Notes: generated by a model not told the origin, from the letters alone. DNA of 17,020 nucleotides from a bacterium (GCA_046757025.1 JBHHXN010000117.1:1-17020), one strand, 5' to 3'; shown: positions 1-6,641, numbered from the stretch's first letter. A program made the numbers and translations.

Positions 1-1468
1 GATATTCGAAAGTCACCACATCCCCCTGGCCGCCTACGCCGCGATTGATTTGCGGAATGGGCACGTTTGTTCCCACTTTGATGACGGCCTCCTGGTTGTC
101 CATCGCCAGGATACGCGGATTGGAAACCAGCTTGGAGTTGGTGTGCGTGTCTAAAAAATCAAGTACGGCCTGGTATTCGCCGAACTTTAAGGTGCCAAAA
201 TTCACACTTCCCCCTTCCAGCGGCACCTCTGCGGTATAACGAAACGGCAGCCCGGAAGGCAAGATGATCTCGCGAAAAATCTGGGCGTTGATGGTTTTCG
301 ACCAATCGATCCCGAGTTTCTGCTCGTTCTGGGGTGCGATTTCGATGAGCTTGGCCTCGATCATAATCTGCGGCGTGGGCACATCCAGCGCTTCGATGAT
401 GGCTTCCAGCTGCGGAAATTTTTCCGCCGTGTCGGTGACGATCAAGGTACTGCTGCGGCTTTTGGCTTGAGCCTTCTGACCCACGGCGCTTTCCGCAGCC
501 GGTTGAAAGTCGTAGTTGAATACCTGAATTTTAGCCTGGTCGGAAAGCACCTTGCTGAGTGTGGATTTAAGGTTGCTGGCGTCAATATATTGCAGTCGAA
601 ACACTTTTGTTTTCAGCTCCTGAAGCTGGAATTTATCCCGCGGCTTCACCAGGATGACCTCCCCCTCCACTACGTATTCGTAGCCGTTGGCTTTGGCGAT
701 GGCGTCCAGCGCTTGTTTGATGCTTACATTTGAAAGGCTCACTGTTACCTTGCCGCTCACTTCACGGCTGGCCACGATGTTCAATTTGGTTTGTTTGGCA
801 AGCAGGCGCAGCACGTTTGAGATCTCGGCGGCTTTCACATCCAGGGAAATTAGGGCGTCGCTGCGCAGCGGCGCCGGTACCCTGTCCGCATGGGGCTTCT
901 TGATGCTGACCGAGCGATAGTAGGCATTGGACGCCGGCGGCGGCACCTTTTCTGCGGCCTCTTCAAATAAAATATTTACCGATTTCTCCAGGGCTTTCTT
1001 CCTCTTGTGTTGTGTACCGAGTTTGCCGGTGGCGCCATCTTGCTTCGGCTGTGGGGAGGAGGGCAGCGGTATTCTCAAATCGAGGTAAATCAAGCCTGGT
1101 ATTTTTTGAGTGATGGTGTAATTCAACGGTCGTGAAAACGAAAAGGTGAGCTTGACGATAGCCGGCGATTTTTTCCATTGCTGCGCCGTGATGGTTTTGA
1201 CAAACACGTTCTTAAGTCTCAGGTGTTTTTTTTTCAGACGCAATTTCGCATTTTTAACATAAAGGTCGAGTCGCGGCGGTTTCTGACGATACTTTTCGAC
1301 ATAGGCCATTTGGCCGGAGCTGTGCACCATAAGACGATAAAAGCTACCCATATTCATCAGCTCGATTTCCTCTATGTGGGATATTTGCGCCTGCGCCCCG
1401 AGAAAGGACAGAAGCAGCATCAGAATACTCATACTCGCACAGCGGAATTTTCGAAAATTACAGCACAT
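1..1468 (-). CDS. pilQ: Type IV pilus / T2SS-family secretin (PilQ-like), 3' end outside the window
   Basis: Absent from the ORF track because there is no stop in the window. Manual translation from ATG at 1468 gives 489 open codons: signal peptide (MCCNFRKFRCASMSILMLLLSFLGAQA), a probable AMIN-like region, an STN/N0 domain (ISLDVKAAEISNVLRLLAKQTKLNIVASREVSGKVTVSLSNV), a secretin N domain (TKVFRLQYIDA...SSTLIVTD...LDVPTPQIMIEAKLIEI) and the secretin-core motif KLVSNPRILAMDNQEAVIKVG. It overlaps the pilP-like gene by 11 nt. Confidence 0.93.
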   Translation of the reverse strand, partial: MCCNFRKFRCASMSILMLLLSFLGAQAQISHIEEIELMNMGSFYRLMVHSSGQMAYVEKYRQKPPRLDLYVKNAKLRLKKKHLRLKNVFVKTITAQQWKKSPAIVKLTFSFSRPLNYTITQKIPGLIYLDLRIPLPSSPQPKQDGATGKLGTQHKRKKALEKSVNILFEEAAEKVPPPASNAYYRSVSIKKPHADRVPAPLRSDALISLDVKAAEISNVLRLLAKQTKLNIVASREVSGKVTVSLSNVSIKQALDAIAKANGYEYVVEGEVILVKPRDKFQLQELKTKVFRLQYIDASNLKSTLSKVLSDQAKIQVFNYDFQPAAESAVGQKAQAKSRSSTLIVTDTAEKFPQLEAIIEALDVPTPQIMIEAKLIEIAPQNEQKLGIDWSKTINAQIFREIILPSGLPFRYTAEVPLEGGSVNFGTLKFGEYQAVLDFLDTHTNSKLVSNPRILAMDNQEAVIKVGTNVPIPQINRGVGGQGDVVTFEY

Positions 1469-1940
1469 CGTTATTGAGCAACAAAGTCACCACTTTGCGT
1501 CCTTTTTTGCAGATCACGCGGTCGTGCTCGATGTCCAGCACCTTCAAATCGCCTTTTTGCTCGCCCGATTTCAAGATGACATCCCCGATCAAAACGTAAG
1601 CTTGTTTACCCTGCCAGATAATTCCTTTCAGAACAAAATCAGTGGAATCCATTCGCGAGGTATCCAGCTGGGACAGACGAAAAGTCTGGGCAAAGGGATC
1701 CCGGCCCCAGTTCATGTATTTCACCAGCTTTTTTATTTTTTTAGTGGCTTTTTGAATTTGTACAGGCTTCTGCGGCAGCGGCGGTTTCGACGGAGCCGTT
1801 GCCACGGTGGCGGTCTTTTGCAGGCGTTTTTTTTCTGGCCTGTCCGCTTTTTGACACACAAACTGATTGAAGACAAAACAGACCACACTTAAAACCGTCA
1901 GGGCGATCAGTCTTTTCTCACTTTTCTTTAGGCTCGACAT
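1458..1940 (-). CDS. PilP/GspC-like assembly protein
   Basis: 160 aa with an N-terminal hydrophobic segment, a Lys/Pro-rich linker, a WGRDPF motif (RDPF is typical of PilP) and a C-terminal beta domain (LKGIIWQGKQAYVLIGD...KVLDIEHDRVI). It lies between pilO and pilQ. Confidence 0.8.
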   Translation of the reverse strand: MSSLKKSEKRLIALTVLSVVCFVFNQFVCQKADRPEKKRLQKTATVATAPSKPPLPQKPVQIQKATKKIKKLVKYMNWGRDPFAQTFRLSQLDTSRMDSTDFVLKGIIWQGKQAYVLIGDVILKSGEQKGDLKVLDIEHDRVICKKGRKVVTLLLNNDVL

Positions 1941-1941
1941 G

Positions 1942-2523
1942 TCAGGATTTCGTTTGCGTTTCGGTACGGTCTGTCAGAAACAGAATCATGTCCACCAAAA
2001 TTTCGACTCTGGGATGAATGGCTTCATTATAAACAATTATCACTTCGCCCACGGAAACATAAAACGGCAGCTCCCGCAGCGCTTCCACAAATCGGCCGAA
2101 GTTTTTGTAATAGCCTTGCAGTTTTACATGTACGGGCAAATTGATGATCTCAGAAGGTGTTTGTTCGACGTCCGGGAGCTTGATCAAGGACTTGTACTCG
2201 GGAATCACCTGATTGAATTTCAAACCGAAACGGCTGCCGCAATTTCGCAGTTCGTTGACGGCCTGGCTCAGATTCTCTTTTGGAATTAATTTTGAGCGGG
2301 TGGTCAGTATTTCATCCTGGATTTTTTCCACCTGTGCTTGCAAAGCCGAAATTTGTGCATCCGTAACTTTGAAGCTCTGTAACTGCACCAGTAATTTTTT
2401 GCTCTCTTCTTTAAATGCCTGCAATTTTACCCAATCCGGACGGTAAACCGCAAAGTACCATCCCATCCCGATCAGGATGGTCAGCGCCAAAATCAGGAAA
2501 AGTGATTTAAGGGATTGGGGCAT
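1942..2523 (-). CDS. pilO: Type IV pilus assembly protein PilO
   Basis: 193 aa: N-terminal TM helix, coiled coil, then LIPKENLSQAVNEL...LPVHVKLQGYYKNFGRFVEALRELP, matching the PilO/GspM pattern. Its position in the MNOPQ order fits. Confidence 0.87.
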   Translation of the reverse strand: MPQSLKSLFLILALTILIGMGWYFAVYRPDWVKLQAFKEESKKLLVQLQSFKVTDAQISALQAQVEKIQDEILTTRSKLIPKENLSQAVNELRNCGSRFGLKFNQVIPEYKSLIKLPDVEQTPSEIINLPVHVKLQGYYKNFGRFVEALRELPFYVSVGEVIIVYNEAIHPRVEILVDMILFLTDRTETQTKS

Positions 2524-2536
2524 AATTTAACATACC

Positions 2537-5365
2537 TTAAATGGTACATTCGATAGCAAATTCTAAATTCCCATCTTCCCTGATTTTTTGATATTTGATG
2601 GCGATTTCATCGAAGTAGTGTGAATTTTCCAACGCCAGCAAGAAATTCGCCAGGTTGACCCCTTCCCGGGATCGATCGTGAAAAGCCACGCCATCCAGAA
2701 TAACCAGCTCCTGGCCATGTTCAAAAGACTTTTCATAGCGCGTCACCAGTTTAAGCGAGGTCAAGGCAATGTTGGCTGGAATCAAGTTGCTGATAGCCTT
2801 TAAATGATTTGAGGACGCTAAATTGACGACCACTTTTCCCTGAAATTGCTTGCGAAGGTGCTGAAGGGCAGACAATTGCTTCTGTAGTCCCAGATATTTT
2901 TCTCGTTTTGGTTTATAATTTTGATACTCCACACGAATGGCGGCGATTTCTTTTTCAAATTTCTGTATTTGAAATTTCACTCTTTGTGACAGCACCAGTA
3001 AAATCAAGAGAAAAATTAAAAAGCCATAATTGAATATTTTTTTGAATTGGCGAAATGTGTGCTCTTTTTTTAAATTGCCCGGCAAAAAATTTAGAGATCT
3101 TTCCCGATCCAGAGCCAGGCCGATGGCCACGGCGAATCGGGAACCCAGTTTGGCTAATTCCGTTTGATTGGTCACATTCTTCAGTGAAATATTCCGAAAG
3201 GGCTCTAAAAACGCCACCGGAGTATCGAGCTCGCGTGACAAGTATTTCGGCAAATTTATAAGCAAAGCGCCGCCGCCGCTAATCAATATTTTCTGCAGCG
3301 ATTCCACATGAAATTTCTCTTTATAAAAATCCACGGTTCTTTTGATTTCGGTGATCAACCGCTCCAACACCGGCCCCATCATAACGGAAATTTCCTGTAA
3401 TGGAATGCCGTCTGTGGTTTTTCTATCCTCGGGCTTCAAAATGTAACCGTACTCCCGTTTCAGGCTTTCAGCGCGGTCGTGCGAAATGGTCACTTCTTTG
3501 CCATCCAGAAATATCGAGCCCGTAAGCGCTTCAGTGATATCATTGCCGCCGGTGGAAATTTCCCGGGCAAACTGCAATTCACCATGATTTATAAATGCGA
3601 CGTGGGATGAACCGCCTCCCAGGTCGATGATTGCAATGCTTTCTTCGCCATCGCTACTCACCGCAACTCGATACAAATTCCAGAGGGCCACCGGCACGGT
3701 TGACACTTTGGTTGGCGTAACGGCAGCCGACTGCAATACGTCGATATGTTTTGAAATCAGATCGTTTTGTGCAGCCGTCACAAACAGCTCAATTTTTCCA
3801 TTTGATTGACGGTTTTTATCGATGACTTTGTATTCAAAATGGGTGGATTCCAGCGGAAACGGAAAATCTTTTCGGCAAGCCCACGGTACCGCCCGCGCCA
3901 ATTCCTTCTCCGCTTTTAAGGGCAGTTTGATATTTTGGTACAAGACTTCCAACCCCGAAACTGCGCTGGTGATCAAGGTGTTCTTATACTGCTTTAAATT
4001 AAAATCCTCGCGAATGGTATTGGCGATGGGAGACAACTTGGATTCTTCACGGTCGTGCTGCATCAGCTCGGGATTTGGCCGCATGCTACAATCCACGAGT
4101 TTCAGCTTGTTGCCGGTTCTTTGTATTACGACGTATTTCAGCGAATTGGTACCGATATCCAATCCCATAGACTTACTGTTTTCAAACAGAGAGGTCAACG
4201 AAAACGCACGGTTCAAAAGACTGCCACCTTTATAATGGCTCTGAAAGGATGCACCTATCCTTTCTAAAGATTGACGGATCTCGTCAGGAGATTCGGATTC
4301 TGACTCCCGTTTGTGAGTTGCTGTCTTTTCACTCAGAACGCGCGGCGAGGCCAAATCGTCAGCAGCATTCGGAATCGGGACGGCAGGCTCTTCGGCGTTC
4401 GCAGCGCTCAGGTCTGGCGCAGCCGCATGCGCCTTTTCTTCGGCCAGCTCATTTGTCCCTTCCGTGACTGGCGTCTTCTCAGATTCGAGCGCCGCCGTTT
4501 CAGACAAAGCATCCGTTTGCTCGGGAAAAGGCATCGAAACTTCCGTCCCGCCTTGCGTGGAGGATTTAATCAAGTCGGCGTTTTCACTCAAATCAAAGTC
4601 CTGGTTCTGCAGATTAATTGGCAGGTCGGATGCGCTGTTTCCCGGTGCAATCTCTGTGGATTCAGTGGACTCCATTTTCGATGCAAGCGCCGGCTCCGTC
4701 GGCAGAATCAAAATATCCTCGTCCTCTAAATTTTCAGTAGAAGCATGGTCTTTGGCTGCGGCTGAAGTTTCCACTTCCAGATTCTGATCGTCGAGCTCAC
4801 TGTTTTTGGTTTCCGAATCATCGGCATTTTTCAAATCGTAAGGAATCTCTGTTTGAAGATTAAATTCAGGCTCTGGAGGTAAAGTTAGCGGGGCGTCCAC
4901 TGCATCATCGACAAAATCAAAGCCTAAATTCTCAGCGCTGTTTTCTATCTCAGCAACCAAATCCGGTTCCTCAACTACCTCCTTCTCTATCTCTGATTCA
5001 TTGGCTACGTTTTCCGTGACCGTTTCAGATTCCTTTTCCTGAACCACGTCTTCATCCACCGCGAAATGATTTACCGATTCCAGAGCCTGTTCATTTATGT
5101 CGAATTTTAAGTCATGTGACGCCTGTTCGTCGGAATCCTTCTTTTCAAGCTTTGGCGCTGAGAGACTCTCCTCAGACGACGGGGTTTCCTGATTTTTACT
5201 GCCGCTCAACAACAACGACAAATCCAATTTATCGATTCCATAAACTTCCCGGTTGAGTTTATCGATATCGATGGTCGCGCTGTCAGACTTATTTTTAGAA
5301 GGCAACTTGCGATTTTTTTTCTTCGCTTGCACCAAAAAGTCCAGATCTAATTTGTCCGAATTCAT
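2537..5365 (-). CDS. pilM: PilM-PilN fusion protein with long acidic N-terminal extension
   Basis: 942 aa. Actin-like PilM motifs start at about residue 400 (MGLDIGTNSLKYV, IIDLGGGSSHV, ILISGGGALL, FAVAIGLAL). They are followed in frame by a PilN-type LNFLP motif (3080-3094), a TM helix (FNYGFLIFLLILLVLS), a coiled coil and a PilN-like core. Confidence 0.9.
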   Translation of the reverse strand: MNSDKLDLDFLVQAKKKNRKLPSKNKSDSATIDIDKLNREVYGIDKLDLSLLLSGSKNQETPSSEESLSAPKLEKKDSDEQASHDLKFDINEQALESVNHFAVDEDVVQEKESETVTENVANESEIEKEVVEEPDLVAEIENSAENLGFDFVDDAVDAPLTLPPEPEFNLQTEIPYDLKNADDSETKNSELDDQNLEVETSAAAKDHASTENLEDEDILILPTEPALASKMESTESTEIAPGNSASDLPINLQNQDFDLSENADLIKSSTQGGTEVSMPFPEQTDALSETAALESEKTPVTEGTNELAEEKAHAAAPDLSAANAEEPAVPIPNAADDLASPRVLSEKTATHKRESESESPDEIRQSLERIGASFQSHYKGGSLLNRAFSLTSLFENSKSMGLDIGTNSLKYVVIQRTGNKLKLVDCSMRPNPELMQHDREESKLSPIANTIREDFNLKQYKNTLITSAVSGLEVLYQNIKLPLKAEKELARAVPWACRKDFPFPLESTHFEYKVIDKNRQSNGKIELFVTAAQNDLISKHIDVLQSAAVTPTKVSTVPVALWNLYRVAVSSDGEESIAIIDLGGGSSHVAFINHGELQFAREISTGGNDITEALTGSIFLDGKEVTISHDRAESLKREYGYILKPEDRKTTDGIPLQEISVMMGPVLERLITEIKRTVDFYKEKFHVESLQKILISGGGALLINLPKYLSRELDTPVAFLEPFRNISLKNVTNQTELAKLGSRFAVAIGLALDRERSLNFLPGNLKKEHTFRQFKKIFNYGFLIFLLILLVLSQRVKFQIQKFEKEIAAIRVEYQNYKPKREKYLGLQKQLSALQHLRKQFQGKVVVNLASSNHLKAISNLIPANIALTSLKLVTRYEKSFEHGQELVILDGVAFHDRSREGVNLANFLLALENSHYFDEIAIKYQKIREDGNLEFAIECTI

Positions 5366-5387
5366 GTTGACAAAAATGAAATTAGTT

Positions 5388-5544
5388 AGTGTCTGACCGA
5401 AAACGGAAGTCTTTATGCTGAGTCCCGAAGTAAATTCGGGAAAGCATGATATAAAAACAAGAACTTATCACCCTTCGACGCAGTTTATCCTGAGCTTGTC
5501 GAAGGGCTCAGGGTAAAGAAATATGGACTTTTCAGCCAGACAAT
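5388..5544. mobile_element. MITE-like non-coding element with imperfect TIRs and nested REP-like palindromes
   Basis: Left end AGTGTCTGACCGAAAA (5388-5403) vs reverse complement of the right end ATTGTCTGGCTGAAAA (5529-5544) match at 13/16. Internal hairpins are TCCCGAA-gtaaa-TTCGGGA and CCCTTCGAC...GTCGAAGGG / TTTATCCTGAG...CTCAGGGTAAA. Confidence 0.65.
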
Positions 5545-5807
5545 TGTTAAGGTTTTATTAATTAATTATCAATCGAAACCAATACTTCAACACTCAATGT
5601 AATTGTGAATTATTTAAGTGGCTATTTTAAAAACAACATCAAATTTCACTGATAAATTCAGTCGATTATTTCAACAAATCGTGTCTTCAAAACATCGTAA
5701 AGAAACACCGGGCAAACGTTATTCACACCTTCATTTTGATATTTTCGCAAAAATATGTCGTAACGATTGATTAGTTAAACAGCCGGTGTTTTTGGATATA
5801 ATACTGT

Positions 5808-6641
5808 TTAAGTTATCGGCAGGAAGTCTGAAGTGTTGAGTGAAAATTGACCGTCAGAAATCAATTTTAAATAATGATTTAATTCATATTCCGGCGGTAC
5901 ATTCAATCCCATTTTGTTGAGTTGTTCCACCTCCTGAAAAATGATCTCCGGCCGGTCATCTCGGACGATCTTGCCCTCGTGTAAAACCAACAGCCGGTCA
6001 AACAGGAGGACTTCTTCGGGAAACTGAGTGATAAACAGCGTGGTAATCGCTTGCGGCGAAGGTAAGGCAGGTTGCATTTTGTTGAGATTCAGAATCAATG
6101 AAATGACTGCCTTGCGGCTGGGGGGATCTAACAGGGAGGTCGGTTCATCAAAAATGAGATAGCGCGGCGACATCGCCATGACCGCCGCCAGAGCCAGTCG
6201 CTGCATTTCACCGCCAGAAAGCCGGTGCGGCGGTTGCAGGCGGAGGGACTCCAGGTTAAATTTCTGCAGCATATCGTCCACGATGCGGTGCATTTCGGCG
6301 GCAGGCACGCCTAAATTCTCCAGGCCAAAGGCGATCTCTCGTTCAACGGTGGTGGAGACGATCTGGTTTTCCGGGTTCTGAAAAACCATGCCAACCCGAC
6401 GGCGGATTTCTACCGCTTCGTCGGCCCGACGTGTATCGAGCTCATCAACCCAGACCGCCCCTTCGGTTGGCAACAGCAAACCATTCAGACAGCGAGCCAG
6501 AGTGGTCTTCCCTGAACCGTTTGCGCCCATGAGTCCGATGGTTTCCCCCGGCTGAATTTCGAAGTGGACGCCATCGAGAACGCGGATATTTTTTGTCTGG
6601 TGCTGAGTGTATTCGAAGGTGAGATTTTGAACTCGAACCAT
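5808..6641 (-). CDS. ecfA: Energy-coupling factor (ECF) transporter ATPase, EcfA1/CbiO-like
   Basis: Walker A GANGSGKT, VGMVFQNPENQIVSTTVEREIAFGLENLG (typical of ECF ATPases), signature LSGGE, Walker B IFDEPTSLLDP. Confidence 0.9.
   Translation of the reverse strand: MVRVQNLTFEYTQHQTKNIRVLDGVHFEIQPGETIGLMGANGSGKTTLARCLNGLLLPTEGAVWVDELDTRRADEAVEIRRRVGMVFQNPENQIVSTTVEREIAFGLENLGVPAAEMHRIVDDMLQKFNLESLRLQPPHRLSGGEMQRLALAAVMAMSPRYLIFDEPTSLLDPPSRKAVISLILNLNKMQPALPSPQAITTLFITQFPEEVLLFDRLLVLHEGKIVRDDRPEIIFQEVEQLNKMGLNVPPEYELNHYLKLISDGQFSLNTSDFLPIT

Follow-up and report, generated by a model that had tools for sequence, protein, structure and literature searches.

Why would a core subunit of the type IV pilus carry several hundred acidic residues ahead of its first recognisable motif? 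The question is raised by one open reading frame (ORF) in a 17,020-nt stretch of bacterial DNA (GCA_046757025.1 JBHHXN010000117.1:1-17020; hereafter the window), which is contig C117 of G000, a draft genome of 5.96 Mb that is 95% complete. The organism is uncultured; its relatives go under candidate division KSB1, Caldithrix sp., Calditrichaceae or still other names, and the window DNA is present in hydrothermal-vent metagenome runs of one study. An initial annotation had read the ORF as PilM with an acidic extension that might act as its own polar scaffold. We find that the ORF (2537-5365, minus strand) is a PilM-PilN fusion of the type IVa pilus, pilMN, and that the extension, here called the arm, carries short motifs conserved between relatives. 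The parts of the gene are:

2537..5365 (-): pilMN, 942 aa, comprising acidic arm, PilM, transmembrane (TM) helix and PilN; ORF without internal stop
4211..5365 (-): added N-terminal arm, residues 1-385, acidic and predicted disordered; from composition, AlphaFold2 and orthologues
4166..4210 (-): N-terminal segment native to PilM (SLTSLFEN); from alignment to the N-terminus of Thermus PilM
3104..4165 (-): PilM actin-like domain, residues 401-754; PF11104, TIGR01175 and Foldseek
3080..3097 (-): SLNFLP, the fused PilN N-terminal motif (family consensus NLLP); alignments
2984..3037 (-): single TM helix; AlphaFold2 and hydropathy
2540..2983 (-): PilN periplasmic coiled coil and ferredoxin-like domain; PF05137 and AlphaFold2

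The PilM assignment in the initial annotation stood, and the PilN fused behind it had been missed. The PilM domain matches PF11104 (E 7e-40; 137.4 bits against a cut-off of 27) and the curated model TIGR01175 (169.6 bits against 133), and the best Foldseek matches of this core are the PilM structures 5eou and 2ych. ATP binding is predicted from the nucleotide motifs GxDIG, DxGG and GGG, which are present in pilMN and kept across the homologue alignments. Past PilM, the chain runs through LNFLP (residues 758-762), a TM helix at about 777-794 (the top 19-residue hydropathy, 2.04, starts near residue 774) and a PilN domain (PF05137, residues 855-942; E 4e-4, with 20.8 bits just under the Pfam cut-off of 22.8), and it is therefore a PilM-PilN fusion. 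PF05137 is also listed for many pilMN homologues. The protein thus shares with the type IVa PilM-PilN pairs of T. thermophilus (2YCH), P. aeruginosa (5EOU) and M. xanthus (3JC8) the actin-like fold, the nucleotide motifs, the NLLP strand, the TM helix with PilN, and an operon with pilO and pilQ; it differs from them in being a single chain with a motif-tipped acidic arm of 144-397 aa before the normal N-terminus. Fusion as such is already known, from the type II secretion (T2SS) proteins GspL/PulL and from the Amuc_1101 family (PMC10191384). In contrast to those fusions, pilMN does not reach the threshold of the Amuc_1101 family model NF045709 (155.2 bits against 650), its operon includes pilT in relatives, and the T2SS-like clusters of G000 lie elsewhere (C69, C183). 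The nearest outgroup comprises arm-less PilMN fusions of 522-525 aa.

GLDIG stands at residue 401, where it had been placed. The extension had been given as the ~395 residues before it; the added part is about residues 1-385, because the N-terminus that Thermus PilM (2ych) natively has is matched in alignment by residues 389-393, which so belong to PilM itself. Other claims about the arm were borne out. It is long, acidic (D+E 23%, K+R 8%, compared with 12%/12% in the PilM core) and uninterrupted; no hydrophobic segment exceeds a 19-residue hydropathy of 0.37, in keeping with the absence of a TM helix; and residues 1 to about 385 are predicted to be disordered, with an AlphaFold2 confidence score (predicted local distance difference test, pLDDT) below 50 over residues 1-8, 18-93 and 95-389, nearly all of 1-389, and short helices at 9-17 and 92-98.

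The arm is also general among orthologues. Searching 125 genomes of the class with the core at E<=1e-25 gave 34 matching genomes, 33 of which hold orthologues, from five families; the other, with stand-alone PilMs of 354/364 aa only, was excluded. Two orthologues were not scored, one cut at a contig end (G015) and one, in G101, with an internal stop, a TAA (L172, G101:C105). The remaining 31 all carry the arm (144-397 aa, median 301, net charge -0.02 to -0.23 per residue), as the proposed check of homologues for long acidic N-termini had asked, and their core identity goes down to 26-37% across the five families.

Could the arm nevertheless be untranslated, with the true start at Met400, or be an artefact of assembly? 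In G000 an ATG lies one codon ahead of GLDIG, no Shine-Dalgarno-like word precedes Met1, and codon bias in the arm is weak. Such a word, however, is found for just 702 of the 1620 long ATG ORFs of the genome, and only 10/31 orthologues have an ATG at most 20 codons away from the core. In four genomes about 5-40 nt separate the ecfA stop from the start that follows it, so no other start reading applies there. We estimated the ratio of nonsynonymous to synonymous substitution rates (dN/dS) from seven same-genus pairs; dS was estimable in four, and near saturation in the last two. In these four pairs dN/dS was 0.37, 0.32, 0.16 and 0.16 for the arm, and 0.15, 0.10, 0.02 and 0.13 for the core; by this measure the arm is under purifying selection. 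Single unitigs of two metagenome runs (X1, X2) cover 2400-5444, and hence the whole gene, with 1-2 differences and no joints, which speaks against the assembly chimera that the initial annotation had allowed for; the runs come from one study, possibly the source of the assembly, and two others (X3, X4) are broken into pieces over the pilMN region. No RNA run was listed as containing this DNA, which counts neither for nor against translation of the arm. The dN/dS values and the single unitigs together argue that the arm is coding and not a chimera, and we regard a start at Met400 or an artefact as scarcely credible. Among database entries, P0082 ends out of frame right before the core, and P0085, on a 916-nt contig, has an arm joined to the EcfA C-terminus, probably an assembly artefact.

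A quick, midpoint-rooted tree of 43 PilM cores places the long-arm proteins in one cluster, with P0046 (a 93-aa lead) and one truncated row inside the cluster, and the arm-less PilMN fusions of 522-541 aa fall outside it. The arm therefore probably arose once, on a pre-existing PilM-PilN fusion.

What is kept within the arm is a set of four short motifs; the spacer between them is nearly unalignable and varies almost 3-fold in length. In the window they are:

5321..5353 (-): M1, residues 5-15, KLDLDFLVQAK, with an AlphaFold helix at 9-17; consensus D-[LIVF]-x-[FWY]-L
5204..5230 (-): M2, residues 46-54, KLDLSLLLS, where the M1 type recurs; strict pattern in 7/24
5072..5110 (-): M3, residues 86-98, LKFDINEQALESV, with a helix at 92-98; in 12/24 genome orthologues and 20/34 database homologues
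4868..4894 (-): M4, first copy, PLTLPPEP; (E)PLILP type
4691..4720 (-): M4, second copy, ILILPTEP; (E)PLILP type

M1 lies within the first 50 residues in 30/31 orthologues, usually at residue 6-14, against a mean of 0.25 and a maximum of 3 in 1000 shuffles, and is found in 32/34 database homologues longer than 700 aa, a set that overlaps the genome set. M3 (F-[DE]-I-[NSTD]-[ED] plus a helix) and M4 (22/34 homologues, 1-4 copies each) likewise recur far above shuffles. AlphaFold places helices at M1 and M3 in the G000 protein, and in a second orthologue M2 has one as well as M1 and M3; the pLDDT of the predicted helix 9-17 is about 50. The database gene call at this locus (P0002) begins at residue 12, removing M1. 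The hydrophobic-acidic motifs listed in the initial annotation are all present (DLDFL at 7, DLKFDI at 85, NLGFDFVDD at 146, EFNLQ at 167, DFDLSE at 256), and the first two types recur in homologues (DLDFL in 32/34, FDI[N/S] in 20/34); the others do not (GFDF 1/34, EFNLQ 3/34, DFDLS 0/34).

Searches with the tip of the arm returned mostly its own family. A profile of 15 sequences (A2) gave one match in the PDB (E 0.54), not a relevant one, and no family under E 0.1 in Pfam; an ESM Atlas search with residues 1-130 gave no usable match. All 12 matches of a word-index search with the profile were arm-bearing PilMN proteins or fragments of them. Against 1.84 billion representatives there were 17 matches: 14 to the PilMN family or its fragments, one of which (P0089) is placed there by length and match position only, and three to unrelated tandem-repeat proteins. 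By these searches the motif set is thus not found on other proteins.

Two further PilM groups have motif-bearing segments of their own. A second PilMN-like protein of G000 (C3:88288-90369; L081-L099, L108) has an acidic loop, L-x-x-L-E-x-A-F-[DEN]-I-x-[ED], inside its PilM-like domain; the loop is kept in 18/18 inspected orthologues of family f1 as well as in G000, and resembles M3. An unrelated stand-alone PilM group (P0055, P0056, P0058, P0059) has Pro-rich arms of 206-299 aa with a repeated WKKEIS[FL].

Conserved short motifs in a fast-changing acidic spacer are the anatomy of a docking scaffold, and to this extent the idea that this PilM carries its own scaffold is reasonable. The link to FimV/HubP from which that idea had been drawn does not hold at the level of sequence or domains. 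HubP (Vibrio) and FimV (Pseudomonas), which have LysM and a C-terminal TPR (10.1101/116954; PMC8789113), resemble pilMN in having a membrane anchor, a single TM helix, and a long acidic cytoplasmic region. Here, in contrast, the acidic region is an N-terminal arm on a core pilus subunit and is anchored by PilN, not by peptidoglycan binding. The Pfam scan of the pilMN protein gave no LysM (the periplasmic part is PilN) and no TPR, the tip profile has no Pfam family, and the protein has no FimV_Cterm TPR (TIGR03504). G000 also lacks a match to TIGR03504, and to FimV_core (TIGR03505), in answer to the suggestion that fimV be looked for; the control sets gave no above-cut-off match to either, so that the genome-level blank is weak. 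PilMN is thus not a member of the FimV/HubP family, and by analogy it may work as the acidic part of these proteins does, or as the helix-tipped region of Caulobacter PopZ, whose partners are bound through a short N-terminal helix before a disordered region (PMC12682051). PopZ is alike in the short helix (here predicted) on a long disordered region; it differs in that there is no homology and no C-terminal self-assembly domain, the tip alignment having no relevant Pfam or PDB match, in that the arm is anchored through PilMN rather than by self-assembly, and in that the arm has several motif types. A third comparison is FliM, whose N-terminal EIDAL binds the MinD-like FlhG and phosphorylated CheY (CheY-P) (10.1101/2022.04.21.489128). 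M1 resembles EIDAL over five letters, as an acidic-hydrophobic helix motif at the N-terminus of a motor-base protein; it differs in reading D-[LI]-D-F-L, in belonging to a pilus protein and in forming the tip of a long tether, and it may bind partners in a like way. G000 itself gave no match for FliM.

That the arm motifs dock some protein seems to us fairly probable. The reading we favour, and to which we would give slightly less than an even chance, is that the arm is a tethered docking device with which the pilus base captures a positioning or signalling protein, most likely one from the operon of an orphan ParA. In such a device the flexible acidic spacer would present M1-M4 as tethered docking sites, and the docked protein would most likely be the ParA/MinD-type ATPase or a CheY-like receiver of this co-inherited operon. 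M1 and M2 would fold upon binding, in the manner of the EIDAL helix on FlhG or CheY-P; the reach would be set by the 144-397-residue spacer, with its charge keeping it extended; and several PilMN copies in a ring would make a multivalent brush concentrating the partner, which would in turn place or switch the PilT-driven pilus. There are precedents: the acidic cytosolic part of HubP binds ParA1, ParC and FlhG (PMC8789113), ParA/MinD ATPases often bind the N-terminal region of a partner, and the ATPase TadZ/CpaE is required for Tad pilus assembly (both PMC11407121). A bolder form, which we think unlikely, is a FliM-like switch grafted onto the type IV pilus, in which the tip would bind the orphan ParA/MinD ATPase, a phosphorylated receiver or both, and the base would be its own landmark, placed and switched directly, without FimV, HubP or a TPR adaptor.

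The choice of this operon follows from distribution. The orphan ParA (on C14 in G000) occurs in 46/125 genomes and in 31 of the 33 pilMN carriers; 77/125 have neither gene. In an RpoB tree of 28 genomes (30 were searched; one without a match and one with a split gene were left out) the carriers do not form one clade, with 4 changes required for pilMN and 5 for ParA. Neither gene occurs in f4 (sister of f5), in f10 (sister of f2) or in f7/f9/f11, and these three joint absences are suggestive of a link; f6, f15, f14 and G102 are without pilMN yet partly or wholly retain ParA. The operon (G000:C14:25430-30741; L137, L212-L231) also encodes REC-DUF4388, a lytic transglycosylase (SLT) and a second FtsZ (FtsZ2), and often a single-domain REC. 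FtsZ2 ends in most f1 genomes with a conserved peptide, F-S-x-V-x-[DE]-A-V-[KR]-[YF]-[IF]-[DK]-K-L-[FL]; those of f6/f15, which lack pilMN, end differently. The C3-type PilMN is spread differently across genomes. That the partner of the arm comes from the ParA operon is a tentative proposal, and on balance a doubtful one.

Other candidate partners were set aside. MglA is present in 31/31 near-complete genomes and hence uninformative; in G000, mglB-mglA and a third small gene lie at C20:13476-15014 (L078), and MglA is 52-84% identical across the class. The one ExeA-like ATPase of G000 is on another contig and not adjacent, and bactofilin sits beside the chromosomal parA/parB with no link found. 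Docking of the arm in cis on PilM was likewise dropped, two AlphaFold runs having shown none.

Several points weigh against a docking arm served by the ParA operon. The motif patterns were derived from the same sequences in which they were counted, so that the shuffle controls are post hoc; start codons of the orthologues were picked by eye; and the codon-bias score of the arm, at about the 5th percentile of 998 genes, lends no support. M1 is missing from G003, P0029 and P0037, which start with another motif (RFTF). Its likeness to EIDAL may be generic, as similar helix starts occur in the first helix of PilT and the tail of FtsZ2. ParA is found without pilMN in 15 genomes, and pilMN without ParA in two, the drafts G013 and G100. 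The joint absences are few, and what ties pilMN to the operon could be any of its genes, such as SLT or FtsZ2, or a shared lifestyle.

The motifs could instead catch the motor ATPases. An arm of this kind would be a leash that raises the local concentration of PilT or PilB at the PilM socket, where PilB docks and PilT competes (PMC11656802). The operon fits, with pilT directly after pilQ in most relatives whose contig extends there; repeated motifs would suit a hexamer; and the conserved acidic loop of the second PilMN paralogue resembles M3. Canonical PilM, however, has no arm and still engages motors, and PilMN fusions lacking one exist, the closest being P0043-P0045; we consider a leash for motors rather unlikely. 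The arm might also act mostly by bulk, as an acidic brush or condensate-forming spacer, with its tip serving stability, degradation or self-association rather than a specific regulator. Over most of its extent the arm can hardly be aligned, and it is free to change in length; several other G000 proteins bear long acidic tracts, so that in this lineage such tracts commonly expand. Against this, M1 is kept over five families despite the low core identity, and the recurrence of M3 and M4 exceeds what composition needs; bulk alone is, in our judgement, an unlikely account.

A strap folding back on PilM, of the same chain or a neighbour, would be autoinhibitory or would stabilise the ring, with M4 competing with the PilN NLLP strand. 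M4 (PLILP) does resemble NLLP, and the PilN cleft of PilM reportedly can take up that protein's own N-terminus. That cleft would already hold the fused NLLP, though, and the orthologue of the second AlphaFold2 run has no M4; in the runs themselves (23- and 50-sequence alignments, two orthologues) the motifs have a pLDDT of about 50 or below and PilM mostly 80-98. We regard such a strap as improbable. The docking of a positioning or signalling protein remains the reading that we prefer, with the reserve already stated.

The surroundings of pilMN largely resemble those of a type IVa pilus operon. Its neighbours in the window are:

1942..2523 (-): pilO; PF04350, E 2e-9
1458..1940 (-): gene of 160 aa in the pilP position; by position only, without a family match
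2..1468 (-): pilQ secretin (AMIN-like, STN, Secretin_N), truncated where the contig ends; domain matches
5808..6641 (-): ecfA1-type energy-coupling factor (ECF) ATPase, a conserved upstream neighbour, probably positional; synteny

The order in relatives is ecfA-pilMN-pilO-(pilP)-pilQ-pilT, often followed by gapA/tpiA and one more gene, which we take to be comF-like; pilT there encodes a 349-aa ATPase of the T2SSE family. The G000 contig stops inside pilQ, and pilT is not assembled there. PilB, PilC and the pilins of G000 are on other contigs, a second pil cluster is on C3, and the genome also carries mglB-mglA, a chemotaxis cluster with a CheY-like gene, and bactofilin. The ecfA1 gene adjoins pilMN across five families, and ecfA2 (C148) and ecfT (C14) are scattered elsewhere in the genome; we therefore read the adjacency as ordinary synteny and dropped EcfA1 as a partner of the arm. 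Between ecfA and pilMN, at 5400-5545 in the window, lies an interspersed repeat of ~130 bp that is matched 42 times in the genome and has a contig depth rising to about 40-fold, presumably of the miniature inverted-repeat transposable element or repetitive extragenic palindrome (MITE/REP) kind. A promoter scan gave 2 sites, against 2.4 expected by chance.

Elsewhere in G000, other acidic proteins were noted. A class-wide family of about 1200-1400 aa combines HATPase, HAMP, SpoIIE, an acidic tract and TPR, and a paralogous acidic-TPR protein has conserved EAEFVLG and DISDS-type motifs (C95:3225-4961, C10:61911-65696; L109, L110, L112-L136); the layout is FimV-like, that of a candidate landmark. 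An M3 matrix ranked the acidic TPR protein on C95 2nd of 4356 ORFs, and the reciprocal search ranked PilMN only 133rd, so that a common M3 is a weak lead. A 406-aa protein (C3:53720-54937; L111) has an acidic linker between two TPR regions, and in an 830-aa protein (C41:17969-20458) the first 200 residues are extremely acidic and an Arg-rich region comes next. Another match to PilM_2, a divergent one (C2:110067-110642, in a 324-aa frame), has counterparts in most genomes of the class.

What appears to be new here is the motif-tipped acidic arm on PilMN; PilM and the PilMN fusion were already known. We found no prior description of such an arm in the literature on PilM extensions, PilMN fusions, KSB1 pili and orphan ParA, as covered by titles and the openings of abstracts outside subscription journals. 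To our knowledge, the systems studied leave the placing of the pilus and the choice of its motor to landmark or adaptor proteins that are separate, with PilM as a compact stator. The gene call that starts at residue 12 has a practical consequence, in that it cuts off M1; with the full arm, M1, M3 and M4 are short, defined peptides for direct binding tests. The WKKEIS[FL] arms of the unrelated PilM group suggest that motif-bearing arms on PilM are a recurrent design. If the proposal is true, a PilM with its own conserved docking arm would show regulation wired into a core subunit of the pilus.

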